In this document: in pieces, positions 3,426 to 41,355 of the stretch | How the letters are laid out: each line of letters begins with the position of its first letter | How positions within the stretch are numbered: position 1 is the first letter of the stretch | NCBI GenBank assembly: GCA_049999805.1 | Contig: JBNGIO010005928.1 | Location: 41,916-94,096 of the forward strand | Reading direction: 5' to 3' | Origin: Folioceros fuciformis | Lineage: Eukaryota | Length of the DNA: 52,181 bases | Notes under the pieces: model-generated | Databases searched by the model: none | What the model saw: the letters and a program-made list of their open reading frames with translations, nothing else | What the model was told of the DNA's origin: nothing | Position numbers and translations under genes: made by a program

Positions 3426-6254
3426 CTACACTGCATTAGCCGCTCGCTCCAAGCCCTTCGATTGTGTAGATAGTTGCAGCTTCCTAATTGCCGCGGTTCC
3501 CAGCTGCCTAGCCCGCTCTCGAGACACACCATGTCTGTAGCGCAGTTCGCGGAAGTTAACCAGAAATACATGTTGCGCTAAAATGTCCATAAGAGCATAG
3601 GTCAAACCACGTGTCAACCATCCCATCGGAACACACGTTAAACGTACCTCAACCCGATCTTGTCAAAAGACAACTGCTGGCCATCTATTTGACCTAGCCC
3701 GTAGTGCATCTTCACGATATCTTGCTCCCGTTGGCTCAACATAGATGACAACAGATAGTTGACGTCCTCCTGGCAGCAGAAGACCAAAGCGCAATGTGTC
3801 AGAAAAATGAAAGCCAGGTCTCGGGTACTCCGGCCACCGTGTGATTGCCGTTGCTACCTTCAGGAGTACTCTGTCAACCTGCGCCCATGGCTGATTTTCC
3901 GAGTCGTTGTCAGCGATGATCTACGTGCAAGCCATTCAACGCGATCAGACACGCTCCACAAGGGAAATCAGGAAACACTGAAGTAAAACACTGCAACTTA
4001 TGAAAGTATCATTTGCAAACCGTACTCCTCAAAGGCAAGGACTTGGGCTCACTGTGTGAAATGTGTCCTTGTCACCATCTTGTAAGCTATCCCGTCGAAT
4101 TTCTCGATCTATTGACTTCAACCTTTTCTTGGTCTGCAATAACAGGTCACGGCTGCACATTAGACTTTCCCCCTCGGTCCTGAACAGTCCACCAAGCAAA
4201 TAGGGATCCTTCTAGGTGCACCGCAAGAAACGAAGGTTTAGAACCCTTACAACCACCTTGAGGGCATTTTGCACTTTGACATCTGAGATGTTGAGAGCCT
4301 TCGAAATCTTCTGCAAACGATGTCACAGAAACACAGACGTAAACGATATTATAAAGAAGATAGTACAGGTCCTGGCGTGTAATGAGGTTCTGGAACGGAA
4401 ACAACTGGGTCAGGGGAGCTGAAAGTGATTAAGAGTTGAAGCTGACCTGAACTGTAGGAGTTGAGCCCTCAGACGCTATTTTATTTCTAACTTTCCTTAT
4501 CCTGGCCAAAGTATCATGCACATGGACGGGGATCCGCACAGTATTGGAGTGGTCAGCAATAGCCCTTGTCACACCCTGTCCAGCATCCAGATTGCCCCTC
4601 AATCAGAAATGTTTGACTACGAAACATTCTAGAAAAACAGGTCTGAGACCGTCTAACGGTTGTACCTGGCGTATCCACCAGTGCACATAGGTAGAAAGCT
4701 TGTAACCTCTTGTATGGTCAAACTTCTCCACCCCTCTGACCAGCCCAATCGAACCTTCCTGGTGAGCATCAATGGAGGGGGCCTCAGTAGTGCTGAGAAG
4801 GAGTAAGCGCAAACAGACACAGGTGCAACGGGCTTGCCACAGCGGGGCGTGCCCAGCACATTCTGTAAGTCACATTGCCTTGCAAACCTGAATCAAGTCA
4901 GCCAATTCAAGGCCACGGTTGTTGTAGCGTTTAGCAACGGAAACAACAAGCCGTAAATTGGACATGACCATCTTGTCCCTGGCCAGATCGGCTTCGTTCA
5001 ACGTGTTGAGCACGTCACTAGTGGACATTCCCATGTGTGAAGCCCACTGCTCATTACTAGGAGCATACCCAAGCTCCGCCTCCAAACTGACATAGATATG
5101 TAGCAACGAGGCAAGTCAGCAGCGAGCCAATGCAGGAACGGCTCAAACGATAACATCCAACACTGCAGATTTTGCCCACGGTAATAAACCCTGCACACAA
5201 AACTGCTATGCATCTCATTCAGACATTTCTTGCAAACATTTCTTGCAAACAAGGAGAAGACAGCGAGCAGTGTCACGGCCATCCAACACGGGCTACCAAA
5301 CACTAAGAAGTAAAAGCAAAAGGCAGGCGTGACCTACTTCTTACGCACGTCCTTCAGCTGTGTCCCTGACTTGATCTTCTTGGACAACTCAATCTCATCA
5401 TCCCTAGACAGTAGCTCCGTCTTGGTCATGTCCCTCATATACGCCGTCAAATAGTCCTGCAAGCCGTCCGGTCTAGGTCTCGGCCTATCCCTGAACTTCC
5501 TCCGAATCAGCACAGAGGCAGCGGGCGCTTCAGCCGCGCTCCTCTGCTGCCTGGCCTGCATGCGCCGCTGCCTGGCAGACGGCTTCCCGTCGCTCATTAT
5601 CCTACGCCGCGCCGACTCCCCTTTCCTGTCGTCCACTCCGGGCCTTTGCACCGGCTCCCGCTCCAGCACCTGCTCCTCCTCCCGCTCCCGCTCCTCCACC
5701 GGCACGCGCTTCTTGAGCGGCCTCCCACGGCGGCGTGGCGGTGGATTCAGCCTCTGCTCCAAGGCGGATAATTCCTCCAGAGACAAGGCCCACTGCCGCT
5801 CCAGCAGCGAGCGCTCCAGCGCGGTGGTGGGATCTCCAGCCAGGGAAATATCCCCCTCCCTCTCCCGCTCCAAGTCCAGCCCTAAAGAGGCCCCGAGGAA
5901 AGCCGCGTCCAGCAGCGCGAGGCCAAACCCCCGGCTGCTGCTGCACGCACCGGTGTCCTCCAGCACGTACCCGGCCTGCTGCTCCCGCAGCGCGGCCACA
6001 GGCTCGCCCCGGTCCCGATACCCGTCCCGCTCCATCCCCGCCTGCATTGCGCGGTGCTTGAGCGGTGCTCGTATCCGCACGTGCTTGCGCGGCTCTGGAT
6101 CCCCCGCGGCGGCTCCTCCCGCCGCCGGGGCCGCGCACACGCAGGCGCATTCCTGATGGTGGTGCCTGGGGAGTGCCTGGGGTTGCCCCCGCAGCCGCTC
6201 CAGAGGATCTGGCAGCCGCAGGCACGCCTGAAATCCCAGGCCTGAGGCTGCCAT
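3426..6254 (-). CDS. SIG1: Nuclear-encoded plastid RNA polymerase sigma-70 factor, SIG1/SIGA-like; 9 exons (6254-5338, 5086-4888, 4758-4666, 4575-4447, 4310-4257, 4133-4053, 3920-3858, 3769-3648, 3534-3426), ~588 aa
   Basis: GT-AG splicing gives a continuous frame with region 1.2 ([26 protein letters not shown]), region 2 ([50 protein letters not shown]), region 3 and region 4 ([25 protein letters not shown]). YVxWWIRQGVxRA and IADxxxENxPW resemble plant SIG1. The start ATG and the subfamily are inferred. Confidence 0.9.
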
Positions 6255-6848
6255 GCCCGTTTCATGCACAAGCGCAATGCGCTTTGCCTGCGCTGCCACC
6301 ACCTGCAGTAACCATTTTTCCTCAACTATCTGCACCTCCAACTCAAGTGAGACTGTGCAGCGGATGGATAGGGCACGCCAGGTGGCGCCTGCCTGGGCCC
6401 GACGATCCCTTTGCCCAACCACGCCCCCCTTTCCCTTCTTCAGATATTTTGCCTCTCCAAGGCCTTTGCACACATCTCCTAACGATATTTTTTGGTCTAG
6501 CATCTAACATCCGTCATTCTCGCATATGTATCTATCTCTCCTTTTTTTTTATTTGCTATTGAAAAAAGATGAAAGTTCCAACCCGAGGCCAAAGGCCACA
6601 ACGTATTAGCTCGAGTATCATTCTCACAACTACCTATTGCTTCCGGATGTTGTTATGTGAAATAACAAAAAAAATCTACCTATTCATGCTGAAGAAGACA
6701 CTTGATCTATACTTGTTGTTGTTCAAAAGGCCTCATTGGCCAAACCTCTTTGCAAAGCAATGGATGCGTATCATCTAAAGAAGGCCACCACTAAGGCAAG
6801 AGGAAGGAACTCATTCCTATGTCTATAATACACCTTTGTGGACTTTGG

Positions 6849-10142: not shown

Positions 10143-10500
10143 TTGTCCAGACAGGCAGGGGGGCCACTTCTCAAATTCCAATGGTGGGGAGTGGTTTGGT
10201 CCCTATCACTGTTTTCCTTGTGGCAAAACTGGACAGCAATGGTATATGGTGGGAGTGAGCCGGTCACTAGGAAAGCTTTGCTATGGCGCATATGGGAGCA
10301 GGTACTTGTGGTCGCAGAAAGTATTCGAACGTCCACTCACTCTAAGTTCAGGCAGAGAGAGTGGATACTTGCAGGCTTCCTCCGACACAATGACCAATGG
10401 GAGCACTCCTGCCTGTGGGGCAGATACGTCTCATAAGGGTTGGGTGGCTCTTGATCGTAGGGTAGTTTAGCTTTGCTTGCTTCTATAGCTTAGATTTTGC
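10143..10500 (+). mobile_element. Possible 3' end fragment of a LINE ORF2
   Basis: The Trp-rich WWGVVWSLSLFSLWQNWTAMVYG...LWRIW resembles the C-terminal 'W..W..RN..IF' segment of plant L1 ORF2; weak. Confidence 0.3.
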
Positions 10501-10776
10501 TTCTATAGGCTAAGGTATTCAGTTGCGGACGCAATTGATATGCCGTTGGTGTAGCCTAAACTACGAATAATCAGATTTTTTTCTTCGCGGAAAAATAAAG
10601 TAGCCCATCATCCACTAACGACTCGCAGACCACCACGACTCGCAGACCACCTCCTCTAGGTGCTGCTCTTTATTCAAGATACTTACTAAAGAGTTTGGCG
10701 ATCTACGCCCCACTGGCTACTGCTCTAGACTCAATCTGACAAGCTTGCTCTTCAAGCCCTCCACAATTATGTCTCA

Positions 10777-10982
10777 TATCGAAAATGGTAGAGCATGAGA
10801 AGAGAGCATAAGGAAAACAAAACATATATTATGAATATGAGAGAATTATACAAAAAGTGTTGTGTAAGTGAATATAGGTCTATCCACTAGGCTGCGTACC
10901 CCTTCACTAACTAACCCTAATATAAAATAACCATAACTAACCAAAGTAATTAACCCTAAGCAAATAAGATTACTCGCGAACA
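10777..10982 (-). repeat. 3' LTR of Copia B (~206 bp)
   Basis: Aligns to 22661-23007 and abuts the PPT. Confidence 0.85.
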
Positions 10983-11713
10983 CCCTCTCTTAAGCATGAT
11001 GAGCTTAGGCAGCGTAAAGGCGGGACTGAGCACGGGGTTTGTGAAGGCGGTGTAGGATGGTCACAAGGCGAAGGCAGGCATGTAGGAAATAACCAGTAGC
11101 TCTCATTGCTAACCGTTCACTACAGCAAGGATGTGAGCTGGTAGAAGATGAAGTTGCTACAAATCTCGCGACCGCGTATGCAGCATTCCTCACTATCAGC
11201 TTCGCAGGAATCCACATAGTTAGGGTGATTCTTCTGTGCACGATGCCGGGAAAGAGGGCTAAGCGTCGAGTGAGAAGGGAGCAACCTGCAAGGCGCCCAG
11301 CTGAGGGAGAGTGGGACAAATCCCATTTGATTGGGAGTAGTCTCAGAATCGACGGCTGGAAGGTGCTCTTCAATGTGACTCTGTGTTGGGCAAAGCCAGT
11401 AAAAAGGGGCGGTGAGTCAGCAAAAGATACTGGAGATGAGGCCAGTTTACTGAGGCCGCTCCAAGAAGTGCAGCGACTGTTGGGGCTACTCAAGATACTA
11501 CAGGAGGAAGAAAAGGATCGCCAGCTGTATTCAGGTGATTAGAATAGCATGGAGCTTCATCCACCTGGAATAACAGTATGTGATATAGCAGCCTGTCGTC
11601 AAACTAATCCTCCTTGTCATGGAACGCAGGTGCTGAAGGCTAGGGAAAGGGCTGGCCTACTAAAGTATGCAAAAACTGAGGACTTGGGCCTCACCTATAA
11701 GTCCCCTTATCTG

Positions 11714-11915
11714 TCTCATGGTTTAGAGCTAAGGACATGCCTCACGTTGAGTGCAAACAGACATGAGGGCAGGAACATGCGAGAGCACACAAGCGGCTTC
11801 GAAAGAGAATATATTAGTGTTAAGGTTTAGGAAAACGTTATGAACAAAATTGTCTGTGTGTGTGACGGTTCATCCAAGGGACACCTAACTACGCTAGGTT
11901 AACAATCTCCTAACA
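11714..11915 (-). repeat. 3' LTR of Copia A
   Basis: ~95% identical to 17207-17408; flanked by PPT and TSD. Confidence 0.95.
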
Positions 11916-14900
11916 CACCCCCTCAAACTAGCTGGTTAGGCGTTGACTGGAGACAAGCCCTGAACTTCAAATAAGCAGCCCATGTGCTGCAAAATAATGA
12001 GCTGCACAAGCTAAGGAGCCAATTGAAAACACCTATGGCGTAGCCGTGTCCATATGACAAGGGAGAACAACTGGCGATTGGAAAGATCGATAAGCTTCAT
12101 CCACCATGTTCAAATAAGTTAGTTTTGAGACGTTGATGACAGCAGAGAAGTAAAATCTCATAGGCCCAAGGATTCCATATGTTGAAAATGTTTATGCTTG
12201 GGCAGGTTCTTGGTAAGCATGTCTGCAGAATTCATGTTGGTGGATACATAAGCAATCTTTACGATACCTGTTTCAACGGATTGTCGGACATAGTGCTGCC
12301 TAATCTCAATGTGCTTGGTCCTCAAATGGAAATGAGGATTGCTGGTCATGGTAATGATGGATTTGTTATCACAGAGAATTAAAGTCGGAGAGTCCTATGT
12401 GTACGTCAATCCTTGGAGGAAGGTCCTCTCCCATGCTGCCTCCTTAGCATCATCCGTTAAAGCAGTATATTCAGCTTCAGTGGATGAAAGAGCCACAGAG
12501 GTTTGTTTCTTAGACTTCCAATTCACCGTACCATTGGATAGCATGAAGCAATAGGCTGAAATGCTTTTTCTGCTGTCTGGGTCAGATGCCCAATCGGCAT
12601 CTGCATAGTCTGTTATAGAAACATGTGGGCTGTAGTCTTGAAACCATAAGCCATAAGAGATTGTCCCCTTTAAATACCTGAAGACCCATTTGACAGCTGA
12701 CCAATGTAGAGGTCCTAGATTCTCCAAAAACTGTGATAAAGTGCTGACAGTATATTGCAAATCGGGACGGGTCCATGTACATGAGTAGTTTAGACATCCA
12801 ATGGCATGCCTAGAGGGCATATGGGACATAGCAGACTTTTCTTCAGGGGTTTGAGGAGACTGATCTGAGGTAAGTTTAGAACCAACAACACCAGGTGTGC
12901 TCATTGATCTTGCTTGGTCTATATTAAACTTACGCAAAATCTCATTGATATATTTTGTTTGATGCAGGACGAGGATGCCTTGGCTTCTATCTCTAAGCAG
13001 TTGGACACCTAGTACACAGGTAAGTTCACCTATATCCTTCATGTCGAACCTCTGATGTAACATGCTTTTTACGTACTCTAGTAGCTTATTATCATTAGAG
13101 ACTAAAATGGCATCGTCTACATATAGGGCGAGGACTATAAAGTGTGATCCCTCTTGCAATAGGTAAACGTTAGCATCAGTAGGATTATGGACAAAACCAA
13201 GACTTTTAAGGTAGTGATCTATGACTTTATAACATTCTCGGGCGCTTTGTTTTAGCCCATACAACGTTTTCTTAAGTCTACAGACCGAATCAGGGTGTTC
13301 TGGGTCCACAAAGCCTTCGGGGTGAGCCATATAAATTTCCTCATCTAGGTCTCCATATAGAAATGTTGTATTTACATCCATCTGATTAAGATCCTGATTT
13401 TGTTTAGCTGCAAGAGCTAAAAGCATCCTGATAGATTGTGTCTTCATGACAGGAGAGAAAGTTTCGTTGAAGTCGATTCCCTGTTCTTGAGAGAATCCAC
13501 GTGCCACTAGCCGGGATTTATATCTAGCTATTTCTCCAGCAGCATTCAACTTATGCTTAAATACCCATTTGCAGCTCACAGTTTTTCTGCATGCAGGTAA
13601 AGGACATAACTCCTAGGTTTTGTTTCTCATTAGCGACTGATACTCATCCTGGATGGAAGGTATCCAATGCTTTTTGTCTTTCCCTTGAATAACTTCTCGG
13701 TAGGACTGGGGTTCTAAACTGGAGTTGTGACTACAGAATAGATGGTGGGTTCTGTATCATCAGGAGGTGCAGAGTTATCTACTTGCAGTTGTGCTAGTGA
13801 ACAAGTATGAGTTCGATGAGAGGGTGGTTCAGGTGACCATCTATCGGGAGCTCGATGTTCTCTTGTGGGGTACCTACGTTCTGGCTGAGCTAGGGAATAT
13901 TCAGGAGCTGGCCTGGATACCAGCACGGGTTGTGGTGGAGGGATAGGATCACCAAATGGCTGATCTAATGTGTCCTCAAAATCTGACTCAGCTGCTAAAA
14001 GTTGCTGGTATTGTATTTTTGAGTCTGCTTGTGAAGAGGGGTCGGACATGGTATCAAACTCTTGAACATCGACTGCATCTCCAACATCTATATCACCTTG
14101 AGCAGCATCAACAGTTGCGGGATCAGCATCTGTGCCTTGAGTGGCTTTAGTATTCGGTAGCAGGCCAACATCGTCGTGACCCCCTGGTGGACCATAATCA
14201 TCAGCTGAATCTGAATCTTGAGCATCACCCTCTGCACAGTCATATGTTGGAAGACCATCTTGAGGATATGTAATAGGAAGATCATCAAAGTCACAGCGCT
14301 GGTAAGCACCCTATTGAGAATGTAGGTGGCTGTGACTACGCATTTTGCCTAGTATGCCTTGTCAAGACCACTCCATGCTAACATGCTCTTGGTCATTCCA
14401 AGCAGGGTTTGATTTCTTCTTTCCGCAACACCATTTTGTTGTTGCGTGTACGGAATGATGAGTTGCCTCAAAATGCCTTGTGACTCCAAAAGGTGATTGA
14501 AATTTGCATTTGCAAACTCAGAACCGTTGTCTGTCCGAATGCATTTCAGTAGAAGACATGTCTGTCGTTGGATCATGGAAGCCATTCACTAAACGAGGAA
14601 AAGGTGTCAGATTTGTGCTTCAACAGATATGTCTAGGAATACCTGCTGAAGTCGTCGATAATGGTAAGGTAGTACTTAGCCCCTCCAAGGGAGGGTACAT
14701 GTATCTTCCCTGAGACGTCCATGTGAACCAGGTCTAAGACTAAAGAAACACGGTGACCTACCTGTCTAGGAAAAGGTAATTCTTTATGTTTTGCTACGAT
14801 GCAGGATTCACAGAGTGCAAGGTCCTTAAAACACTTAGGGAGTGGCTCCCTGTAGCAATCAGTGTTTGCCATCTTGACAAGCTTTTTTTTGTTCATGTGC

Positions 14901-16708
14901 CCCAACCGAGCATGCCATAACTGTGCCTGAGCCCCGTGAGCCATAGCAACAACCTGTGATATAGGGAGGGGAAAACACTGAACGTTCAGCTTATACATAT
15001 CGTTTGTTAAGAGAACTTGAGCTACCACTACACTGTGACACTCATCATCTAACTCCTGTGTAGTGATGAAACAACCATCTGAGGAGAAATGAAGTTGATA
15101 TCCGAGAGTTTTGAGGAGCTGACTGACCGACAAGAGGTTTTTGGCCATGTCAGGTACGTACAAAACACTATCAAGAAATAGAAATGTGTTATCCTGCAGC
15201 TTAAAACGACAAGTACCTATTCCATGTATGGTGAGACCTGTCAATTGATGTTCATCTCCCAGCAGCACTCAATCAGGTGTGTGGGATGCAACCAAGTTAC
15301 TGAGCAGCCGTTTATCGTTGCAGATATGGGAAGTAGCACCCGAGTCAAGGTACCACGAGTTGGAGTTGTTGGCCATAGCTAAAAGGCAAACTATATAACC
15401 ACTGGTTGCTTGGAAGAGGAGCTGGATGTTAAAGATTTATCCTTGGAAATTATATGGGCCTCTGCCGACTTGTTCAGCTTTTTGGTTCGTTTAGGTTCTT
15501 CTGATTTCTTCTTTCGACATTCATGATCCCAGTGGCCTTTGATGCCACACATGTTGCAAGAGCCACCACGCTTCTGTTGATTAGGCTATGACGTTCCTGA
15601 AGCTTTGTTTTTAGCTTTAAATGGAGACTTTCCCTTAGATGCATAGAGCACTTTGTCTGCTCTGGTCTTTCCTGAAGAACCATGAACTTCCCGCCCTTGT
15701 TCCTCTTGAAAAAGGGCACCCACCACATCTATGAAGGAGATTGGTGAAGGGTTGCCAGCGGCTACAACAACACTCGCTGCCCTTAAGGAAACACCTTGTC
15801 CGGACATGAATGTCTGATAGTTGGGAGGGAGACTCATGAAAAGTTGTGCAATGGCATCCAACTCTGACATGGTTGAGCCAAGTGCTTTAAGTTGGGCACG
15901 CAGGTGCCGAAATCTACCCGCAAACATAGGGGCTCGTTCTCCTTCCTTCATGCGCAAGCCGAAAAATTCACTCCTCACCACACAAAAGGTATGGATGTTC
16001 TGCACTGCGTAGGTTTGGGAAAGTTGATCCCAGATTTCTTTGGCATCAGTCAGGTATTCCACATTCGGGATTAGAATCTCGTCAAGGCCGCTAATGATAA
16101 GTGCTCTAGCGACATTGTTATGATTATTCCATTTGAGCTGAACAGCAGTTGGCTGAGGAGCAGGTGCGCAGGGCACTACCGGCACTACAGAAGGAGCAGG
16201 GTTGGGGTAGGAGCCATCCACTACAGGCCAGACGTTTCGTGCCTTGAGGCTTGATCTCATCCGAACCCTCCAAACCTCAAATTTTGAGCTATTGAATCTA
16301 CCACGTTCTTTAAACTCATATGTGTAAGCTGGCTGTGGAATTGTGCCAGGAGGAGGAGGCGGTGGAGGAAGCGCTGCCATACTAGCTGTGCGGGGAGCAA
16401 AAGGTCAGCGCAGAAGAAATTATGAAGAAGAAATGGTGAGACACCAGTGCAAGCAAGCACGGAGGGACGTAGTGGACCTACTCCTAGGTGGCAGCCAGGA
16501 ACGTGTCTCCTAGAAAAAGGGCGTCGTTCCAAAGCTGACATTTGGATTCCAGGGTGAAGTTCCGGATCCAGCTCCTTGGATAGGCGCGACCTAAAGCGCC
16601 ACCATCCGCAGAGCGCACCCCCTGCAATTTGCGAACACGGGACGGCAATGGCGGTGATGATGCCTTTCATAATCTCGAGCAAAAGCTCGATGATCCCAGC
16701 CTTGATCC

Positions 16709-17131
16709 TCAGAAAGTGACCTTAGGTTGGAGCAGCATCATTCGCTCTATCATTGAGGCAAGTTTCCTTTGTTGAATTGCAAGATTATTGATTCTCGCCT
16801 CCAAACTTCCCAGATCCTTGACTCTCAATAGTGCGCAATCTTGGATTCTTATGGGCTGCAAATCTCGTTGCAGGTTCGATTGCCTGCACTACGATTCTGA
16901 GCAACAACAGGTAGGGATGGTTCTTTCAAGATTTGCACCTTGGTCAGTTGGAAATGAATTTGTGGGCTGATCCCGCCTTGATGTATGTTTTGTAGCATAA
17001 ATGGGATTTGCAGATGCACTCCTATTTGCCACTGGTGTCCGATAAAAGTAAGCAGCGTTCCTCTTGGTTTCCCCGGGAAATTGCTGGCTTGGGAAAGAAG
17101 AACTCCAGGTGTGCTGCTTACGTCTTGGCAT
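16709..17131 (-). pseudogene. Additional ORF upstream of gag in Copia A (~140 codons, one internal TAG at 16889-16891)
   Basis: MPRRKQH...ES*CRQSNLQRDLQ...LGSLEARINNLAIQQRKLASMIERMM; shares motifs with the equivalent ORF in Copia B. Confidence 0.5.
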
Positions 17132-17206
17132 GGTTGCTCACTCAAGAAAGGCTCTAGATTTCAACATGAGGCAGGCAGCGGAAGTGAGGTACCTGCTCTG
17201 ATACCA

Positions 17207-17408
17207 TCTCACGGTTTAGAGCTAAGGACATGCCTCACGTTGAGTGCAAATGGACATGAGGGCAGGAACACGGGAGAGCACATAAGCGGCTTCGGAAGAG
17301 AATATCTTAGTGTTAAGGTTTAGGAAAACGTGATGAACAAAATTGTCTGTGTGTGTGACGGTTCATCCAAGGGACACCTAACTACGCTAGGTTAACAATC
17401 GCCTAACA
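17207..17408 (-). repeat. 5' LTR of Copia A
   Basis: Flanked by PBS and TSD. Confidence 0.95.
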
Positions 17409-20400
17409 ATCTGTCCTGCAATAGGTCATGGATTGGGTTTGTAATAGGGTTGGTAGTTCATCAGCCCTAGGCTCTGCATATGTTTTTGATGCTTATCTCT
17501 AGGTAGGGCCTTGGTCAAGATGTCTGCTGTATTGTCCTCAGCAGGAACATAGAGGATTTTAATTAGGCTCCTCTCAGTAGCATCTTTGACATAGTGGTGA
17601 TGAACTTCAATGTGTTTCGTCCGAGCGTGGAAGCAGGGATTGGCAACAAGAGCAATGGCAGATTGATTATCGCAATACAGGTGAGTAGGACCTAGTTGTG
17701 TCTGCCCAAGATCATGTAAGAATGACAACTTCCATTCCACCTCTTTCGTAGCATCCGTCAAGGATTTATATTCGGCTGCCTTTGTGCTGGACAAGGCAAT
17801 ACTCGTCTACTTTTTACAGCTCCAATTGATGGTGGCCTGTGCTAGAAGGAAAACATATGTGGAGAGACTCTTACATGAGTCACTATCTGAGGCCGAGTCT
17901 GCATCCGTGTACCCCTCAAGCACAAGGTGAGACTGTCCTTCACGTTTATAGCACAAACCAAAATAATGTGTGCCTTTAAGATAGTGGAAGACTCTTTTCA
18001 CAGTTGTCCACTAGGCACGTCCTGGATTATTAAGGAATTGTGAGACGGTATTAACCAAGTGCTGAACATTTGGTCTTGTCCAGTTGGTGACGAAGATCAG
18101 GCTACCAACAGCCTGACGATATGGCACATCAAGCATGTCTTGCTTATCAGCATCTATCACAGGAGACTCGTATCTTGTGAGTTTCGTGCCTGCAGCACCT
18201 AAAGTAGTAGCTGGATGAGTCTATGCCATGTTAAACCTGTGTAAAATCTCTGCTATGCTTGTGTAACACCTTAACAAGGTCTTCATATGTGATAGGATGG
18301 TAGGGTTACTGGCTGCAAGGATTACATCATCGACATAAAGTGCAAGGATAACATAGGCAGATCCATCGTGAAACATATTAACATTCGAGTCAGCTTTGCA
18401 TTGTGTGAAACCTAGAGACTTCAAGGCAGTATCACACCTTTTGTACCAGCGTTCTGCACTCTAATTTAATCCATACAGGCATTTGATTAATTGGCAGACG
18501 TGATCAGGGTGTTCAAGGTCAATATAACCTTCTAGCTACTCCATGTACAATTCTTCCTCAAGAATACCATGGAGAAAAGCCGTGCAAACATCCATCTGCT
18601 GCAATTCCAGGTCATACTCCGTAGCAAGGGCCAAAATAATCTGGATGGATTGAGCACGTACAATTGGAGAAAAGGTTTCTTGGTAATCTAATCCAGCAAC
18701 CTAGGTAAATCCTCTTGCACACAGCCTGGCTTTGTAACGCGCTATGTGCTTTTGTGCATTAAGTTTATGCTTAAACACCCACTTACAGGTGATAGCTTTC
18801 CTGGTTGCAAGCCTAGGAACCAAACACCAAGTACCATTCTCAATACAGCTGTTGTATTCGTCATCAATAGCAAATTTCCATTTTTGCTTGTCTGGTCTAG
18901 TGAGAGCTTTTGTAAGAGAAGTTGGCTCTAGAGGCAAGTCTCGAGGAGAGGAAACTGCTGAGGCAGCATGATGTCTGAAATCAATACTAGAATATGGAGG
19001 TTCACTCCACTAGGAAGGGGGAGGTATGTGTCTTGTAGAGCGATGTGGGCTAGTATCCTCAGCATCGTTCTGAGTTGGTTCAACTACGACTAGATCGGGC
19101 TAAGGTAGCTCATCGATCGCATCAGGTATGTCATCTATCACTTGTGCATCAGGATTGTCTATAAATCCCAAGTCGTCCTCTAGATTTCCAGCATCCTGTT
19201 CAACTGGATCAGAATCCAAATCGTTCAAGTCTGCTTCAGGTGCCAAGGGATCTGGCAGGTTATCAACACTGCCATCAGCAGCAAGGCCTAGATTGACAAG
19301 ATCTGGTCCTGGATTGTTTGCTGGAATATTGTGGGCAATGCCATCAACATCCAAGGGATACAAAGACAAAAGGCCAAGTGGGTTCTCTAGAACTGTGTCA
19401 TCAAAATCGTCAGGCTACTCAAAAGGGTCATATGGTTCATCTCTCGACAGGGCAAACTGTAAGGGTTCCAAAAATGTGACACTTCTAGCAAGGATAGGTT
19501 GCTTGGAAATTGGATCAATCAGCTTGTACGCCTTCACTATTTCACTATAACTCACAAAAATAAGGCGCTTTGAGCGATTGTCTAACTTTCGTCATTTGTC
19601 TGCAGGTATATAAGCATAGGCCTTAGAGCCAAAATTCCGAAGATGAAGGAGGCTAGGCTTACGTTTCCAGAACAGCTCGAACGGTGTTGTGTTAGGGACA
19701 AGGGAGCTGGTGGGCAACCTGTTCAATATATAAGTTGAGGTGACCACTGCTTCTGCCCAGTAAGGAGATGGGAGGCCTGACCACAGCTCATTAAGGTTTG
19801 ATTTTTCCTTTCAGCAACACAATTTTGTTGTTGTGTATAAGGCTCGATTAACTGGTGGATGATTCCTTGTGTGGTGAAGAGGGTTTCGAAGGACTGATTC
19901 ATGAATTCTGTGCCATTGTCAGATCTAAAGATCTTGAGGAGACAACTTGTTTGGCGCTGCACCATGGCCAGCCAGGTTTGGAACAGAGGGAAAGTCTCAT
20001 TTTCCTCTTCATGGGGAACGTCCATGTATACCTTGTGTAATCGTCTGTAATGGTGAAGTAATAGTTTGCCCCTCCAAGTAAAGAAACCTGAAGGCGGCCA
20101 GATATATCAGCGTGCACCAGTTCTAGGGGTTGGGAAGATTTGTGAGCTGGTTGGGAAGGGTTTCTCCTTCTGCTTAGCAAGGGTACATGTCTTAGAAAGA
20201 GGAAGTGCCTTTAGGTGAATAGGAAGGGGCTCACGATAGCAGTCACTGTTGCTGAGGGATGCTAAAGCTTTGCAATTCAAATGGCCAATTTGTGCATGCT
20301 AGAGTATGGACTGCTGTTTGGCAGAGAGATTTCCTGCACTTGTAGAGTGGGCTTGATGCTTTCCTCCAACAAGGCAGGTGAAGTCAAGTTGGTAAAGGTC

Positions 20401-21942
20401 ATGTTCAGGTAAAGCCTTGAACACACATACGGAGGGTGAGTCCTTTCTTAAGAAGCAACAGGAGCCTTCTTCAACTATCAGCTGGAAGCTTCTAAGCTTG
20501 AGCAGTCTACTTAGTGACAGCAGGTTTTTGGCCATACTAGGCACATATAAAACCTCTATCATAGTTAGGGTATACCCATCACTAAGCTTGAACGTATAGG
20601 CTAATGTCCTGATATCTGCAGGCTAGTGGTATTACGTTCATCACCTAAGTACACTCTGTCTATACTAGAAGAGGGAGTTAGGGATGTGAAAAGGGACTCA
20701 TCCCTGCATATATGGGCTGTAGCCCTAGAATCCAGGTACCAGGCTGCTTCATCACCTATTAAGGTAGACAGGCAGATTGTTAGGATTTTAACTACTGGCT
20801 TGTTGGAATCTACAGGCTTGTCACGGACAACAGCGCTGGCAGTAGGGCGGGAAGGCTTGTGTGGCTCCCCAGCTTTCATTTTCCTACAATCATTAGCCCA
20901 TTGCCCAGGTTTGCCGCACCGTTTGCAATTTCCAGTGCGTTTTGTGGAAGGTCCTGCATCATTGCGTTGGCCTTCATTTCTGTTTCCCTAATATGAAGAC
21001 TACATCCACATCTTGTCTTTCTATGCCCCTCTTCCACGGAAAGCGGCTAGAACTCTATCAGCTTTGGATTTTCTAGACCCTAACATGAGCCTGCTCTGCT
21101 CTTTCTAGAAGAGTGCACCTACCACCTCGTCTAAGGTGATAGTGACTTGTCTCCCTGCAGCACCGGCAGCCATAGCCTGTCGGATGGGGACATTATGTGC
21201 AGATACAAAACTCTAGTAACTGGGTGGCAGGTTGGTGAGTAGCTGAGCAATCACGTCCACCTCATCCATCACAGTGCCGAGAGAGGTAAGTTGGGCTCGA
21301 AGGTGTCTAAGTTTGCTGGTGTGAGCAAGAACTTTGTCTCCTTCTCGCATTTTCAGTCCATAAAACTCTCTGCATAATGCATAGAGTGTAAGGACATTAC
21401 TAACCTTATACTAGCTCTCTAATTGTGACCAGATCTCACTGGCCTTAGTTAGGAATTCTATAGGAGGAATGAGATCTTCAGTCACGCCAGAGACAAGAAG
21501 GGCTATGCCTATGCTGTTTGCATGATCCCATCTATCCCTTTCTCCCTTAAGGGCACTAGGAGTAGGTTTAGGGATAGAGCCATCTACAATGCCCCAAACT
21601 CCTCTAGCCAATAACGTCGACTTCATCCGCACTCTCCACACCTCATATTTCTGACCAGTAAATCTGTCCTTCTCTTTTAACTCATATGTAAAGACAAGAT
21701 TGTATGCGCCATGAGGGAAAGGTGGGGGAGGAGGAGTTGTTGACATGTTGACCCCATTTTCTTTTTAGGTTTTTGTGTCTGTGCAAGATTTGCAGGTGTG
21801 AAGAAGCAAACGTGCAGAGAGACACAAAAACCAAGAGGTTACACAAAACGAAACCTACATGTCAAAATGATATTATGAAGAGGTGAATATATGAACCCTA
21901 ACTTTGATATGCCCTTTCACATGAATAGGAACCCTAACTGTG

Positions 21943-22365
21943 TTATCCCGATTTTTTAGGAGGTGGAAGGAGGGTTAGGAGAAACATCTTGACATCAGGT
22001 TGCACCAGAGAGATTGACATGTATGGAGGAATCGCTGGATGTTTGTGTAAAAGTTCTTTGAATAGCAGTTCTAGGTGCCCATTAATCTCAGTAGAGATTG
22101 AGTCAATTTTACTAATTGCCCTTGAATTTTGCGCCAGGAATTGTTGACCCTATATGGCCAAGACCTGTAATAGGGTATCCTCTAGATTGTTTATGCGCTC
22201 AAGAAGGTATTTATGAGCATCATGTGTCTTTGGTATTTGTGAAGAATCAATATCCGGAGTAACATCCAAGTTGACATGCTGAGCAGCCAAATTGGACTGA
22301 TTGCTGTGCTTGTTCTGTGTAGGTGGGGCCACGCGCCTAGAGTGACCTCGCCTCCATGAAGGCAT
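21943..22365 (-). pseudogene. Additional ORF upstream of gag in Copia B (~140 codons, one internal TAG at 22150-22152)
   Basis: MPSWRRGH...NQSNLAAQ...YLLERINNLEDTLLQVLAI*GQQFLAQNSRAISKIDSISTEI... Confidence 0.5.
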
Positions 22366-22660
22366 GTCTAGAGATTAGGAATTTAGATTGTATATTCATA
22401 ATATCTCAGAATTTTGTAACGGAGAATTGTGTGCAGTAAGGGCAATGTGGGCTTGAGCAGACTTTCATAATTATCAAAGAATAATTATGTGAATTTGCTA
22501 AAGTCCCTATTGTTCTTCCTCTACATCAATTGTCAATCTGTACTTAATAAAATCATTGATTAATTATTAATTATAATTAATTTTGCATAGATTCCCATAT
22601 GCTTTTTCTACGCGGAAGAATTAAGTAGGATCTATACCTTCAAACATAACTCTCATACCA

Positions 22661-23007
22661 TGTCGGAAATGGTACAGCATTAGAAAAGAGCATAAGGAAA
22701 ACAAAACATATATTATGAGCATAAGGAAAACAAAACATATATTATGAATATGAGGAAAAACATATATTATGAGCATAAGGAAAACAAAACATATATTATG
22801 AATATGAGGAAATGGTAGAGCATTAGAAAAGAGCATAAGGAAAACAAAACATATATTATGAATATAAGAAAATTATAAAAAGAGTCGTGTAAGTGAGTAT
22901 AAGTCTATCTACTAGGCTAGTCACCCCTTCACTAACTAACCCTAATATAAAATAACCATAACTAACCCAAGTAGTTAACCCTAAGCGAGTGAGGTTACTC
23001 GCCAACA
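22661..23007 (-). repeat. 5' LTR of Copia B (~347 bp, with internal tandem expansion)
   Basis: TG...CA ends, abuts the PBS, and carries several copies of gagcataaggaaaacaaaacatatattatg. Confidence 0.85.
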
Positions 23008-23389
23008 TGTTGAGGCTAGACTTCTCATTGTCTACCTCTCTCTCTCTCTCTCTATGTATATCCTTAAGGTCTTAGTGCTAGCCTATTTATACTCCATAGC
23101 TAAGCCATTGCTAAAGCTGGGAATGATGCACACCACTCATTTTAGAATATTAGTAGTCATTACAGGAGGTTTTGCCTAGAACACATCTGGTTTCCTATCC
23201 AAAGGCAACAAGAAGTCTATTTGCTTTTTCATCAAGATAATTCTAGATTTAATTTTTATTTTTCTACTTTTAACTTTCATATTATTTTATTTGTGCTATT
23301 ACTTTTCACTTGTGCCATTACTAGTGGTCTTATTTTGTCAAGTGCTCAATTCCAAAATTGGAAAAAATTCTTTCACTCAGAAACAAGAC

Positions 23390-26404: not shown

Positions 26405-29838
<3,434 letters not shown>

Positions 29839-32033
29839 GTGGCGTGGTGGTGTGTGGTGTGCTGCGCTGTGATGTGCTGTGCAGTGATTGCAGTGCCCTG
29901 CAGAGCAGGGCAGGGCAGGGCAGGGCAGAGCAGGGCAGGGCAGTGCGACAGTGGTGTGCGTCCCTCACACTCTCGCCATGTGCATACGCTTGTGCGAGCA
30001 GTGGACTGTGGTAGTTTTTGTCACATAGGTGAGCTCCAAATGCTGAAAGGCGCTAGAAGGGGATTTTCAGGAAAGACGAGGTCCCCTCTAAAGACAAATT
30101 ATTGATGGCGCGAATATCCCAGCGCGAGAGTGGAGCAGCCCAGCTCGGTCCCCAGCCCATCACAGCCTAGCGCTGGTGTCTTATGTGCAACGACGTTGAT
30201 TCTTGAGCAGTAAAGAAGTGGCGTTGTTGGCGCACTGTGACTGTGCGACCAACCCACCTTTCCCTGGCCTTCCCTTTCCTCCCTATTTTCTCCTTGTCTT
30301 GTGCCTGTGCTTGTCCGTGTGACTGTTGCTGCTGCCGCAGTGCGTGGTGCGAGGTTGCGAGACAAACAAATGCCATGAATGTGTTCACCTAAATCCCGCC
30401 CGAGCCCGATTCCGGTGCCGTGACGGTGTGTGGGATTCACCATCTGCCTTGTCCCCATATGCACAAGTCAAGCCGGGCATATGGCGCGCACTGCGTGTGC
30501 GTGGTGTGGCAGACCCGGCTCCGGCTCTGGCCCGGGGTCGGGCCAAGGCGTCTTAAATGCCGCTGTGTTTCCGGACCCGCACCCGCACCCGCACACGCCT
30601 CTCAAGAATCGTGCTCAACGGAAGATTCTCGCTGCCAGCCGCTTGGAAGCATGCAAGGTGCGCGTAGGAGGCAAGAAAACAGGGCGGATTAGGTTGTGGC
30701 TAAGCATGCTTGTTAAGCATGCTTTGTCTTTGTGACAGCCCACTAATACTTGTCGGTGTGGGTGAAGGTGAAGGAGTGGGTGTGGGAGTGTGTGGGTGTC
30801 GGTGAATGGTCTGGGAGCGGGTGGCAAATGCCATCGCTGGTGGTGGTTTAGGTGTTTGGAGTGGGGCCCTTTCCTCTTTCTATCCTCTTTCTCCCCCTTT
30901 CTCCTCTTCCTCCCCCTTTCTCCTCTTTCTCCCCCTTCCTCCCCCCTTTCTCCCTTTCCCATCCCCCCTTGCTCTTGTCGCTAAGCCATAACCACCCGCA
31001 TGTGGCCTATCCCTCTCCTAATTAAGGCTTGATGGCCACGAAGTCGAGGGAAGCAGCGACGTCGGGAAGGTGGGCAGGGCCCCTTCCTTTGCTCAGAATC
31101 GGATACATACAAAAAAACCGCGAGGCTGGCACCCGCACGACAGAAGCGAGGCATCGCATGTGGCACTGGACCTGTTGATGCATATGGCGTTGGTATGGAC
31201 AAGAATGAGAAAAATTTACTACTGCTGGCCCATCTGCTTCTCCATGACTGGAGGCGGATACAGACGCAGGCATGTGGGTGGCGAGGACCTCGGAAAGTGT
31301 TTAAATCCTACAATGTGACAAGGAGGTGGAGGAGGTGAGTGATTGCCCGGAAGCCGCTACGCGTACCACGGACAGGCCCACGTCGTGACGCCCCTTGTTT
31401 CCAGCCGCAGCCGGAGCTGGAGCGGGAACCGGAGCCGGTGCTGGCCGCGAGGCCCGGCCCCGCAAGCTGCTTGCCCCGATGCCCACGCCCACGCCGGAGC
31501 CACCGCCACACCCGACGCCAAACTCCCCGTATCATATCTCATGCTTTGCGAATACGATAAAAACGCAGCTAAGAGTGTGACAGCGGAGTGGCGCCCATGC
31601 CATGCCAGGCCAGCGCCAGCGCCAGTAGGTCTGTATTGTGGTGAGGAGGGAGAAAGGAGGAAGAAAGGACGCAGAAAAGAGAAAGGGGAACGACGGGGCG
31701 AGGTGGCTGGCGTAGCTCCATGACATGTCACTTGGGATTGATGGCATAGTCTGGTCCTCGATGGGATGGGATTTATGGCGGGCCCCGTGGGAGGCTGGAC
31801 TCTTGCACGGGCGCGTGCCCCGCGCTGCACCTGCCTCTGTGTCTGAGCGCCACGCCGCTCCGGACACAGCTTGCCTTGCGCCAACTCCAAATCTATGGAA
31901 AGGCTATGATGCTGCTGCTGCTCCTTTGCTATTGCTCCACACAAAGGGAAAGGCCAGGAGCAGTTGCCTGCCGCTGCTGCTGCTGGCCGTGGGCTCTGGG
32001 CCCGGCCCTGGTCCTGCCCTGCCCGATTCTGCC

Positions 32034-32998: not shown

Positions 32999-34327
32999 CT
33001 ATGGCTGGGGAGGGGCTTGAGGAAAGCAATTCAGGGTCCAGTCGGGCTCCAGCGGCACCCGCACGACATGGTACTCGTCATCCGTGTCGCACATACTCTT
33101 GTCGCGCACATGATCCCAAGTGTCGTCCACGAAGTCGTACACTACCATCTCAAAGCATCCTTTCTCGAATTTGGTGAAGTAGAGTCTGTGCTTGTCCGCC
33201 ACACAAGTTGAAGTCCTGGGCCACCCGAGGGACACGAACTCCTCCGGCATTTCGGCTATCAAAGCCCAGTCCACCATCTTCTCCAGCTCCGCCACTGTGT
33301 ACACGCTCACACGATTTCGGGAGCTGATGTCAATCACCACCAGGACGGTGCCCTGCCACTCCAAAAGGTTTGTCACGTAGTAGAACTTCAACGATGAAAT
33401 GGGCAGGGACAGGGACGTCCACGTCCTCTTCTCCAAGTCGCATTTCATCACAGCCATCCTCTCCCCCATCTTGCCCAACCCGATACAGTAAAGGGCCCCG
33501 TTGCACACCACATTCGCGCCATAAGGCCGCAGGGGCATGGGTGCCAAGAAACGCCAATAGCCTAGGGTGGAGTCGAACACGTAAGTGTTTCTCACCGGCT
33601 CCACCAACACCACCTTATACGCCTTGGAATTCCTGTCCATAATCATGCGAAGAAGCAGTGGAGGTAACGCAGATGCACCATCCGGCAGCGGCGGCAACTC
33701 CGTCCACTGGCCCGTCACGGGATTGCACACGGAATAGGATATGATATCCAGAAAATGCCGCTTGAAGCTCAGCAAGAGCAGGCCTCCAGCACCCGTCACC
33801 TGCCCACACGGTTTCACATTGGAGGGGAAACAGGACAGCGGAGGGAGCTTCTTCCACTCCCTCCTCGCGAAGTCATACGCGATGCATCCCTCCTTCCGCG
33901 CTGGTGCAGCATCCGGTAGCATGTTGTGGAATGTGACAAACAGAGGGCAATACGTTCCTCGCACTGACCTTTTATTCAATATCTCCAGAAAATCCGCAGA
34001 GAAGAGATACGGCTCCTTCCATCTCTTGCACAAGCTCCGCAACTGGCAAATCTTGGACAGCGGGAGGTGCGCTATCACTCTGTCCAGTATATCTTCCGGA
34101 AATTTGCTCCATAATCTCTCATCCATTTTCACACTCGTGGACGACTCCATGTGCTGCAGGAACAGCGACTCCACTGTAGCATCCCAACCGAGCCACGGCC
34201 AATGTCCCTGCCCCCGCCCCGGCCCCTGGGACGCGCCACCACCGCCGCAGGAGCGGAATCTTCCATGCGTGTAAACATTTCTCGCCCGCTTCGGGAACCC
34301 CAGCTGAACGTCCATCTCGTGCATCAC
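32999..34327 (-). CDS. Intronless F-box protein with FBA/kelch-type beta-propeller C-terminus (true start possibly ATG at 34150)
   Basis: F-box LWSKFPEDILDRVIAHLPLSKICQLRSLCKRW, then AYDFARREWKKLP, AGGLLL, VCNPVTGQWTELPPLP, YKVVLV, VFDS...W, VVCNGALY. Confidence 0.9.
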   Translation of the reverse strand: MMHEMDVQLGFPKRARNVYTHGRFRSCGGGGASQGPGRGQGHWPWLGWDATVESLFLQHMESSTSVKMDERLWSKFPEDILDRVIAHLPLSKICQLRSLCKRWKEPYLFSADFLEILNKRSVRGTYCPLFVTFHNMLPDAAPARKEGCIAYDFARREWKKLPPLSCFPSNVKPCGQVTGAGGLLLLSFKRHFLDIISYSVCNPVTGQWTELPPLPDGASALPPLLLRMIMDRNSKAYKVVLVEPVRNTYVFDSTLGYWRFLAPMPLRPYGANVVCNGALYCIGLGKMGERMAVMKCDLEKRTWTSLSLPISSLKFYYVTNLLEWQGTVLVVIDISSRNRVSVYTVAELEKMVDWALIAEMPEEFVSLGWPRTSTCVADKHRLYFTKFEKGCFEMVVYDFVDDTWDHVRDKSMCDTDDEYHVVRVPLEPDWTLNCFPQAPPQP

Positions 34328-34910
34328 ACCTTCTCAACTACACGCAAACAAGAAAAAAAACCCGACCGACCTGTGCGCGCTGGCCAGGCCGGTCCTCCAC
34401 ACAACCGACTACAAATTCTTCAACCCTACCCCAACGCCTCGGTCTTTGTAAGCGCGCGCCTCCTCAAGGGCCCCCTGACACAATCTTGAACAAATCCAGG
34501 GATTCCAGACCAAACCTTCCGGCAATTGGCAGAGCGAAAATATTGTCACAGCAGCTGACAAGACCGCGAGACTGCAGATCAATTTCTCCGCATCGGAAGC
34601 AGGAATGAAGCTCCCATGCAACAACGCCGTAATCTGGACCGAAGACAGACACACCGCATCATCCTCGCCGGGACTCTCCTCCAGCCGCAAAAAAAAAAGA
34701 AAAGAACCGAGTCCTACTCTCCTTCTAGACGAAGTCTCGGGAGACCGGAATCCCCGTCCCGACCAAATTTGAGGAGGCAACAGAGCGGAGCTGCAGACAC
34801 AGGAAGCTCACGCACACAAACCTGCTCCTCAACAACCGGAGGGAAAGCAGACTTGAGACCAAGAGCCGAGCCGGAAGAAAGCGAAAACAAGTCCGTGAAG
34901 GAGGCCCCGA

Positions 34911-35008: not shown

Positions 35009-35108
35009 NNNNNNNNNNNNNNNNNNNNNNNNNNNNNNNNNNNNNNNNNNNNNNNNNNNNNNNNNNNNNNNNNNNNNNNNNNNNNNNNNNNNNNNNNNNN
35101 NNNNNNNN
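35009..35108. other. Assembly gap (100 N)
   Basis: Run of N; true size unknown. Confidence 0.99.
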
Positions 35109-40028: not shown

Positions 40029-41355
40029 CTACAAACCTGTTTTGGTGCAATGTCGGTCTCCTCCAACCTTCATGCAGTGCGTGTAACCCACACTGGTCAT
40101 GAAATCCAAGATTTGTTCCCTGCTCGATTTACTTTCTGTGAGAAGTCGTTCATCATCTTCATATATAACATAAGGGGAAGCCTCAGGCGGCCTTGTCAGC
40201 AGGCGTGCTGCCCCTTTAAGTACATGATATTCCCAACCTTGGACGTCAACTTTCAAAAGCAGGACAGGTTCATCTTCAGCAACGATGGAATCTAGAGTTA
40301 CGGTCGCAACAACAACAGGAACCACCTCACTTGATTTGAACGTCAGGGCCGCTCCGGTGGCCGACACAGCACTGTTATCCAGCCTCCCAATCACCTGCAA
40401 ACGGGATACGTACCAGACCCTGTCAGACGAAAGCCCGCAGGAAAGACGCCACCTTTTAGCAGGACAGAGTAGCGTGGTCCATAGACCAGTACTCAAGCTT
40501 GACGCACTCAGTCATTATCATTGAAGCTCTCTCCTCCTCGGCAGTGTCCACATTCCCAAAACCAGAGAACGACAGGGTCGCCTTGTGGAATCAGGACTGT
40601 AGCATACTCTAGAGACTTCAGATGTGGGAAACCTAATCCGCGGCGATGACCTTGCCTACCTGATGGAGAGTGATGTTACCAACTTGATCCGACACAGCAG
40701 CCTGGTAAAGCTTCACAAGATGTCCCACCCGGTTCAAGTAGAGTCCATCACAAAGTCTCTGAAGGTTTTCAAAGACCGGCTCAAAAGCTAGCACACGGCA
40801 GCCCATGGCAGAGGCAGCAAACGACGCCATCCCGATGTTAGCACCCACGTCCACAACCAACGCCGCCTTCCGCTCCGAACTGGAGGCATTTGGGGCCAAT
40901 CTGTCGAGCAAATCCTGCACGGTCTGGGATATGGCCGGCTTCTGGAAGAACTTTCCCTTGATCATGCGCTGGAAGTTCTTCACCGGCTTCTCAGCTGTAC
41001 CTAGGTCATTGATGGAGATAAAGAAAGGGTACCGCATTCCCTCCACCTTGTGTGCGAACACTGGAGCCCGCTGCGGCAGAGTCCAGCAATCTACGGACTC
41101 AAAATCATCGTCACCGCTGTGTAGGCCGCTCCAAGACGAGGTCTGGCGGCAACCAAGCATAGACCGCTGCTCCCTGCCATCGCTCTGAGGCGACGCGCTG
41201 GGAAATTGGCCGAGGAAAATGCCGGCTAGGATTGCAGAGCCTCCCAGAAGAAAAAGCACTCCGCAATAGAGGCATCGTTGAGACGCAGGATGCCTCTGCA
41301 GAACCCTAGCTGACGTCTCCCTGCGACTCACTCCCACCACTTTGCAGGCATGCAT
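40029..41355 (-). CDS. FkbM-family (Methyltransf_21) SAM-dependent methyltransferase with N-terminal TM anchor; 2 exons (41355-40660, 40394-40029), ~353 aa
   Basis: VVDVGANIG, RVLAFEPVFENL, VTLDS, LLKVDVQGWEYHVLKGA; hydrophobic GVLFLLGGSAILAGIFLG. The start is uncertain. Confidence 0.9.

Follow-up and report, generated by a model that had tools for sequence, protein, structure and literature searches.

The 52,181-nt stretch of the Folioceros fuciformis contig JBNGIO010005928.1 analysed here (assembly GCA_049999805.1; hereafter the window) contains two decayed Ty1/copia retrotransposons, elements A and B, and in each a near-open sense frame of 140 codons lies in the leader that runs from the primer-binding site (PBS) to the start of gag. 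Each frame is broken by one TAG, and both carry the short words QSNL and RINNL, which had suggested an accessory protein belonging to a Copia lineage. We lean towards a different reading, namely that these are chance near-open frames in the non-coding leaders of two distantly related, decayed elements, and not a shared accessory gene. A shared lineage gene is disfavoured because the frames have no alignable similarity, the motifs are placed differently within them, and the leader is poorly conserved among relatives that share gag. The evidence on a shared protein leans negative, and such a protein is not established. For frame B taken alone, several weak signs of coding concur: its length, its best-frame codon score, stops private to each copy, and predicted helices.

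In the reading that we favour, the near-open frames would have arisen by chance in long, fast-evolving untranslated leaders, which measure 814 nt from PBS to gag in A and 904 nt in B. The leader itself would act as RNA, in tRNA priming at the PBS and probably in packaging and in the control of gag translation. The QSNL and RINNL words would then be a coincidence between two translations that are both rich in Q, N, L and R.

Two near-open frames in the leaders of elements A and B

The original prediction described a sense frame between the PBS and the gag ATG of each element, and this observation is accurate: the frames, their TAGs, their MP starts and their QSNL and RINNL words are all found at the positions listed in Table 1. 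Translation confirms that both proteins begin with MP followed by basic residues, that a single internal TAG interrupts each frame, and that QSNL precedes RINNL in both. The long terminal repeats (LTRs) of A and B had been thought dissimilar, and we find no similarity between them past the first ~10 bases; past the PBS the two leaders are not alignable as DNA. The suspicion that the equal length of 423 nt might be chance also stands, as we found no evidence that it has meaning. Ahead of the ATG of frame B the leader has seven other ATGs, and ahead of that of frame A it has one, which opens a 4-codon frame.

TAG was said to be the type of lesion that also damages gag-pol, and this holds for 10 of the 13 in-frame stops examined there, the remaining three being TGA (3 TAG and 1 TGA in A, 7 TAG and 2 TGA in B). 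Such a preponderance would be in keeping with C-to-T decay where CAG sites are methylated.

Frames A and B are not detectably related

Compared as proteins, frames A and B are not detectably related, and no test that we ran supports relatedness. The best BLASTP match between them has an E value of 8.9 and leaves RINNL outside. Smith-Waterman alignment gives a score of 25, which 71% of 2000 shuffles equal or exceed, against a shuffle mean of 27.2 (standard deviation 4.4). The surroundings of the motifs are at chance level over the 20 residues before them (p 0.11), the stretch between them (p 0.34) and the 20 residues after them (p 0.69). Over the nine frame pairs, 53 ungapped matches score at least 22, RINNL (score 25) among them; the top ungapped match (34) lies off the diagonal in other frames, and the mean top score of 30 shuffles is 33. 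The motifs span amino acids 84–117 in A and 23–61 in B, and because their placement differs in this way the starts and ends of the two frames do not correspond. All base differences between A and B in the nine motif codons are synonymous, a pattern that does not discriminate, since a chance match at the protein level would look alike.

Frame length and shared words in shuffled leaders

Length was judged against 2000 dinucleotide-preserving shuffles of each leader, scored for an ATG frame of at least 140 codons with one internal stop. The length of frame A is ordinary by this measure, being reached in 14% of the shuffles (p 0.14). The leader of A also holds a fully open frame of 154 codons (16721–16260, minus strand), which has no Pfam match and enters the first 120 nt of gag in a different frame; not all of this frame can be coding, and it shows that chance frames of such a size occur in the stop-poor leader of A. 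When the 420 nt of each frame were shuffled on their own, any sense frame with at most one stop appeared in 5.0% (A) and 3.5% (B) of 5000 trials, values that flatter the frames because the segments had been picked for being open. Some 5-mer common to both leaders, whatever the frame pair, turns up in 27% of 20,000 shuffles.

The open frames of the A leader bear on a further reading, which we regard as very improbable, in which the two frames are remnants, either of a transduced host-gene fragment or of a former N-terminal extension of gag that was broken by frameshifts. Element A does have a chain of overlapping open frames (17137–16712, 16721–16260 and 16404 onward, with two frame changes and one TAG), and per 271–272 codons its leader has 7–10 stops in the sense frames against 11–12 in the antisense frames. 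However, B has no comparable chain, no similarity to any protein or Pfam family was found, and the gag sequences of A and B can be aligned from each one's own ATG.

Homologs, coding signal and predicted structure

Word-indexed searches of 5.8 billion proteins returned no homolog of frame A or frame B at near lengths, nor of frame A at longer lengths, and Pfam gave no family for either frame. Within the window, tblastn and blastn searches with both frames and both leaders found only self matches. A HMMER search of frame B against 1.84 billion representatives yielded four matches, which we rejected as spurious because each consists of 5–7 matched stretches over which weak matches add up; the two that were inspected are tandem-repeat proteins, one of them with eight SEA-domain stretches. 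The Pfam family MbeD_MobD, which came up on frame A, was rejected as noise: its E value is 0.057, and its 14 bits fall short of the 21.6 cut-off. The Atlas recognition scores of the two frames, 1993 and 1509, are under the 2300 reached by 91% of known-family proteins. Their first Atlas matches are unnamed clusters (0.92 for B and 0.80 for A), and shuffled proteins reach 0.92 in 4–10 of 100 cases. Judged by a hydropathy threshold for membrane helices, both frames lack a membrane-type segment, the maximum 19-residue Kyte-Doolittle mean being 0.41 in A and 1.18 in B.

We scored codon usage by training on the gag-pol of one element and testing on that of the other. In every coding window, 18 of 18 in one test and 19 of 19 in the other, the correct frame comes out on top; the mean scores are 0.15 and 0.13, and the lowest are 0.061 and 0.074. 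Frame A reaches 0.049, less than any of the 19 true coding windows (minimum 0.074), and another frame of its segment scores higher. In AlphaFold models, which are single-sequence predictions with no control fold for comparison, residues 1–95 of frame A are unstructured and are followed by one helix (96–133) at a predicted local distance difference test (pLDDT) value of ~93, with a mean of 55. Frame B is predicted to form two helices, 49–70 and 74–108, at pLDDT 72–81 (mean 64). Apart from the motif pair, nothing favours coding of frame A.

Copies of the leaders among sequencing contigs

Contigs of four sequencing runs, from at most two samples, were aligned to 16300–22700 at 80% likeness. Summed contig depth is 270–438 over the gag of B, 100–410 over most of pol and 41–55 over the variable linker between integrase and reverse transcriptase; it is 14–42 over the B leader and 14–28 over frame A, single contigs having a depth of ~10–13. 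From this gap in depth, dozens of relatives share the gag of B at 80% or more and only ~2–3 copies share either leader. In conservation the leader at best equals the polyprotein's most variable part. According to a review, a conserved extra open reading frame (ORF) is expected to be present in all or most copies (Vicient and Casacuberta 2020, PMC7264820); here the leader is found in ~2–3 copies against dozens of gag relatives, and one sister copy was seen.

This sister copy of the B leader is a 672-nt contig over 21655–22326 with 28 differences and no gaps. Our comparison of frame B covers the 12 differences that were listed, all within 22149–22281, the other 16 and codons 73–140 lying outside it. 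The 12 differences change 11 codons of frame B, of which 3 changes are silent and 8 are not. The sister copy has a stop of its own, also a TAG, at codon 29, where the window copy reads Gln.

The run whose RNA type is only guessed (X4) gave two contigs, each of which lies on pol; the leaders received none. In another run (X3), 843 places differ over the same span, 410 of them C>T and 219 G>A. The changes in the other two DNA runs of the X3 sample are balanced, and X3 looks like a cytosine-conversion (methylation) library.

Evidence against a chance origin, and the alternatives to it

Several results weigh against a chance origin of the frames. Frame B is longer than expected by chance, its length being reached in only 2.2% of the leader shuffles (p 0.022). 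Within its 420 nt, frame A has one stop against 5–6 in the other five frames, and frame B has one against 4–12. The density of one stop per 140 codons is not above that of gag-pol, and both internal stops are TAG, as most gag-pol lesions are. A shared 5-mer together with a collinear 4-mer, at a spacing that agrees within 5 residues, appears in 0.235% of the all-frame leader shuffles (n = 20,000) and, when only the two frames are compared, in 0.0145% of protein shuffles, although both statistics overstate the case by an unknown factor because they were defined after the motifs had been seen. The motif pair lies mid-leader in both elements, at offset 398 of 814 in A and 452 of 904 in B. RINNL falls in a predicted helix in both models, as the original prediction had proposed, at the high pLDDT of the single helix of A and the lower values of those of B. 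The codon score of frame B, 0.125–0.129, exceeds the scores of the other two frames and falls in the coding range. In the sister copy a sense codon stands at codon 72, where the window copy has its TAG, RINNL is retained and its codons show one synonymous change, and the whole contig is free of indels. Finally, the 8:3 ratio of replacement to silent codon changes says little about past selection, because the differences between two old copies are mostly post-insertion decay; we rejected it for this reason as a test of the ratio of nonsynonymous to synonymous substitution rates (dN/dS).

Part of this evidence would fit an accessory gene that A and B inherited from a common Copia ancestor and that has diverged except for a helical QSNL...RINNL core in mid-leader. 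Its product would be a small helical protein, possibly one that self-associates, with a role in trans in the element cycle. The rarity of the collinear pair, its similar relative position in the two leaders, the synonymous motif differences, the predicted helix around RINNL and the near-open state of both frames with their TAG-type lesions all point in this direction, and with gag 45–49% and reverse transcriptase 46% identical a faster-evolving protein could have become unrecognisable. Yet the motif statistic was built with the motifs in view, the flanks of the motifs are dissimilar, and the ends of the frames fail to correspond. Moreover, frame A has no coding signal and 95 residues modelled as unstructured, the synonymous pattern is what a chance protein match would give too, and the protein searches produced no homologs. 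We consider inheritance of such a gene improbable. We likewise give little credence to the wider proposal of a plant Ty1/copia lineage with a helical mid-leader accessory protein of ~60–140 amino acids, kept since the split of A and B, whose reverse transcriptases are 46% identical.

A different possibility is that frame B alone is a real small ORF, encoding a young accessory or de novo protein of the B subfamily of ~140 amino acids with the two long helices predicted above. Its translation would take place on the genomic RNA, upstream of gag, and the frame would have been open in the progenitor of the two leader copies, frame A and the motifs being coincidence. We think this unlikely, though it is the alternative with the most to recommend it. 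Besides the length, the single stop and the codon score of frame B, it draws on the helices, which were predicted without an alignment, on a first Atlas match at a level that few shuffled proteins reach, and on the sister copy with its freedom from indels. The stop of each copy is private to it, consistent with a frame still open in the ancestor of the two, although two copies cannot prove the direction of change. On the other side, 62 non-coding control windows have a 95th percentile of 0.141, above the codon score of the frame, no homolog was found among the representatives searched with HMMER, and seven ATGs precede the frame. The leader is present in few copies compared with gag, and the sister-copy comparison takes in neither 16 of the 28 differences nor codons 73–140. 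Two copies do not decide which state is older. Chance near-open frames remain the explanation that we prefer for both leaders.

Anatomy and decay of the nested elements

Elements A and B are true Ty1/copia LTR retrotransposons, as seen from their gag, the order of the RVT_2 domain, an LTR pair and a PBS, and in A from a 5-bp target-site duplication. Both are on the minus strand, A is nested inside B, and there are no further Copia elements in the window. The gag is of the Copia type: PF14223 (Retrotran_gag_2) matches A on 15589–16404 (E 2e-22) and B on 21414–21764 (E 1.2e-08). The reverse transcriptase of A is matched by PF07727 (RVT_2) on 12398–13612 (E 1.2e-68), and its gag_pre-integrs domain (PF13976, 14636–15268) lies 5' of RVT_2 on the minus strand, which is the copia order. 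The gag-pol pieces of B match those of A piece by piece in the same order. At the amino-acid level the two are 45–49% identical in gag, 53–62% in the integrase pieces, 46% in reverse transcriptase and 53% in RNase H, and they are distant relatives. Metagenome scans with the gag of A, or with an alignment of both gag sequences, returned no relatives, and up to an E value of 0.1 Rfam gave no match over 10500–23200.

Element A is a complete insertion that occupies 11709–17413 with both duplications and lies 16 bases past the pol stop of B; from this distance, A inserted into the 3' untranslated region of B and split it. The PBS of A, TGGTATCAGAGC, is presumably of the full-length tRNA-Met 3'-end type. 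The LTRs of B are 86–90% identical and of unequal length, because a tandem array is expanded in the 5' LTR; it is present once in the 3' LTR (10783–10863).

Table 1. Coordinates of elements A and B, their leader frames and motifs in the window
Feature	Position	Strand	Remarks
Frame A	16709–17131	-	140 codons + terminal TGA; translation of minus strand
Frame A internal TAG	16889–16891	-	codon 81
Frame A QSNL	16871–16882	-	amino acid 84
Frame A RINNL	16781–16795	-	amino acid 113
Frame B	21943–22365	-	140 codons + terminal TAA; translation of minus strand
Frame B internal TAG	22150–22152	-	codon 72
Frame B QSNL	22288–22299	-	amino acid 23
Frame B RINNL	22183–22197	-	amino acid 57
Element A 5' LTR	17207–17408	-	202 nt; 95% identical to 11714–11915
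Element A PBS TGGTATCAGAGC	17195–17206	-	abuts 5' LTR
Element A gag-pol, decayed	12161–16380	-	~9 pieces; gag ATG 16380, pol end near 12161
Element A 3' LTR	11714–11915	-	direct repeat of A 5' LTR
Target-site duplication of A, CAGAT	17409–17413 (5' side) and 11709–11713	-	5 bp
Element B 5' LTR	22661–23007	-	direct repeats with 10783–10982
Tandem array in B 5' LTR	22688–22872		expanded; period 29 or 54 nt, ~3–6 copies
Element B PBS-like site TGGTATGAGAG	22650–22660	-	aligns with PBS of A
Element B gag-pol, decayed	17429–21746	-	~16 pieces; gag ATG 21746, pol stop 17429
Remainder of B 3' untranslated region	10983–11708		cut off by insertion of A
Element B 3' LTR	10783–10982	-	direct repeats with 5' LTR

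Neighbouring features

The 3' untranslated region of B contains, between the insertion of A and the B 3' LTR, a stop-free sense frame of 177 codons (11008–11538, minus strand). No Pfam family matches it, and it may be either a chance frame or an additional 3' ORF. Outside the nested elements, host-type genes flank them at 5337–6503, 28944–29690, 30495–30590, 33002–34333 and 40636–41430, and the features called in the flanks are a sigma-70 region 1.2 match, an SIS domain, a tRNA-Gln call, an F-box/Kelch protein and an FkbM-type methyltransferase domain. A gap of 100 N lies at 35009–35108.

Comparison with known systems

As this case illustrates, near-open frames in the leaders of two related elements, with two short words in common, can mimic a gene while every test of relatedness comes out negative. 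Were the frames genuine, they would be the first small sense ORF between PBS and gag that we have found described for a plant Copia element, and they would raise the question of how gag gets translated downstream of such an ORF. In the literature searched and in the available part of the REXdb table, no small sense ORF between PBS and gag is described for plant Copia, and shorter 5' ORFs may sit in the per-element lists of REXdb.

In layout, A and B resemble ordinary plant Ty1/copia elements, sharing with them the succession of LTR, PBS, leader, gag and pol, the 5-bp duplication (in A) and the copia order of gag, gag_pre-integrase and RVT_2. Their leaders of 0.8–0.9 kb, in contrast, are long for elements of ~5.7 and 6.5 kb. 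The REXdb study (PMC6317226) gives a tRNA-Met PBS and a 5-bp duplication for most Copia lineages, and for Bryco, a moss Copia lineage, a 1/2 tRNA-Met PBS in 100% of elements.

The same study counts extra ORFs (eORFs) only from at least 250 codons upwards (PMC6317226). The background that came with the original prediction, placing extra ORFs 5' in Gypsy Ogre elements and 3' of pol in Copia SIRE elements, agrees with what it reports. Among Gypsy lineages, the share of elements with an eORF-5'F is 33% in Tekay, 23% in TatII and 21% in Ogre; these ORFs are heterogeneous, mostly lack known domains and, like frames A and B, are in sense orientation between the 5' LTR and gag (PMC6317226). The frames described here share that 5' sense position but belong to Copia elements, and at 140 codons with an internal TAG they are shorter than the 250-codon bound. 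For Copia, the accessible portion of the study gives no eORF percentage for 13 of 16 lineages, small percentages of ambiguous eORF type for Bianca and Ikeros, and 74% eORF-3'F for SIRE (PMC6317226). SIRE (Sirevirus) is thus, on this evidence, the Copia lineage with a characteristic extra ORF, an env-like one, but it lies 3' of pol, whereas frames A and B lie 5' of gag.

By position and size, the nearest functional analogue is the pair sORF1 and sORF2 in the MDG1 group of Drosophila Ty3/gypsy elements (412, Mdg1, Stalker and Blood; PMC11952523). On the full-length RNA these ORFs of ~110 amino acids are in sense orientation between the LTR and gag; their divergence puts them beyond the reach of sequence searches, and they are predicted to form helices. 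They occur in nearly all members of the group, their dN/dS is reported to be low, and peptides from them have been found; sORF2 combines a transmembrane helix with a myristoylation motif (PMC11952523). Unlike sORF2 and FAST-like proteins, frames A and B have no hydrophobic segment and both begin with MP, and the elements that carry them are plant Copia. A shared protein, if real after all, would give Copia an equivalent of the 5' small ORFs of the Drosophila MDG1 group and of the Gypsy eORF-5'F.

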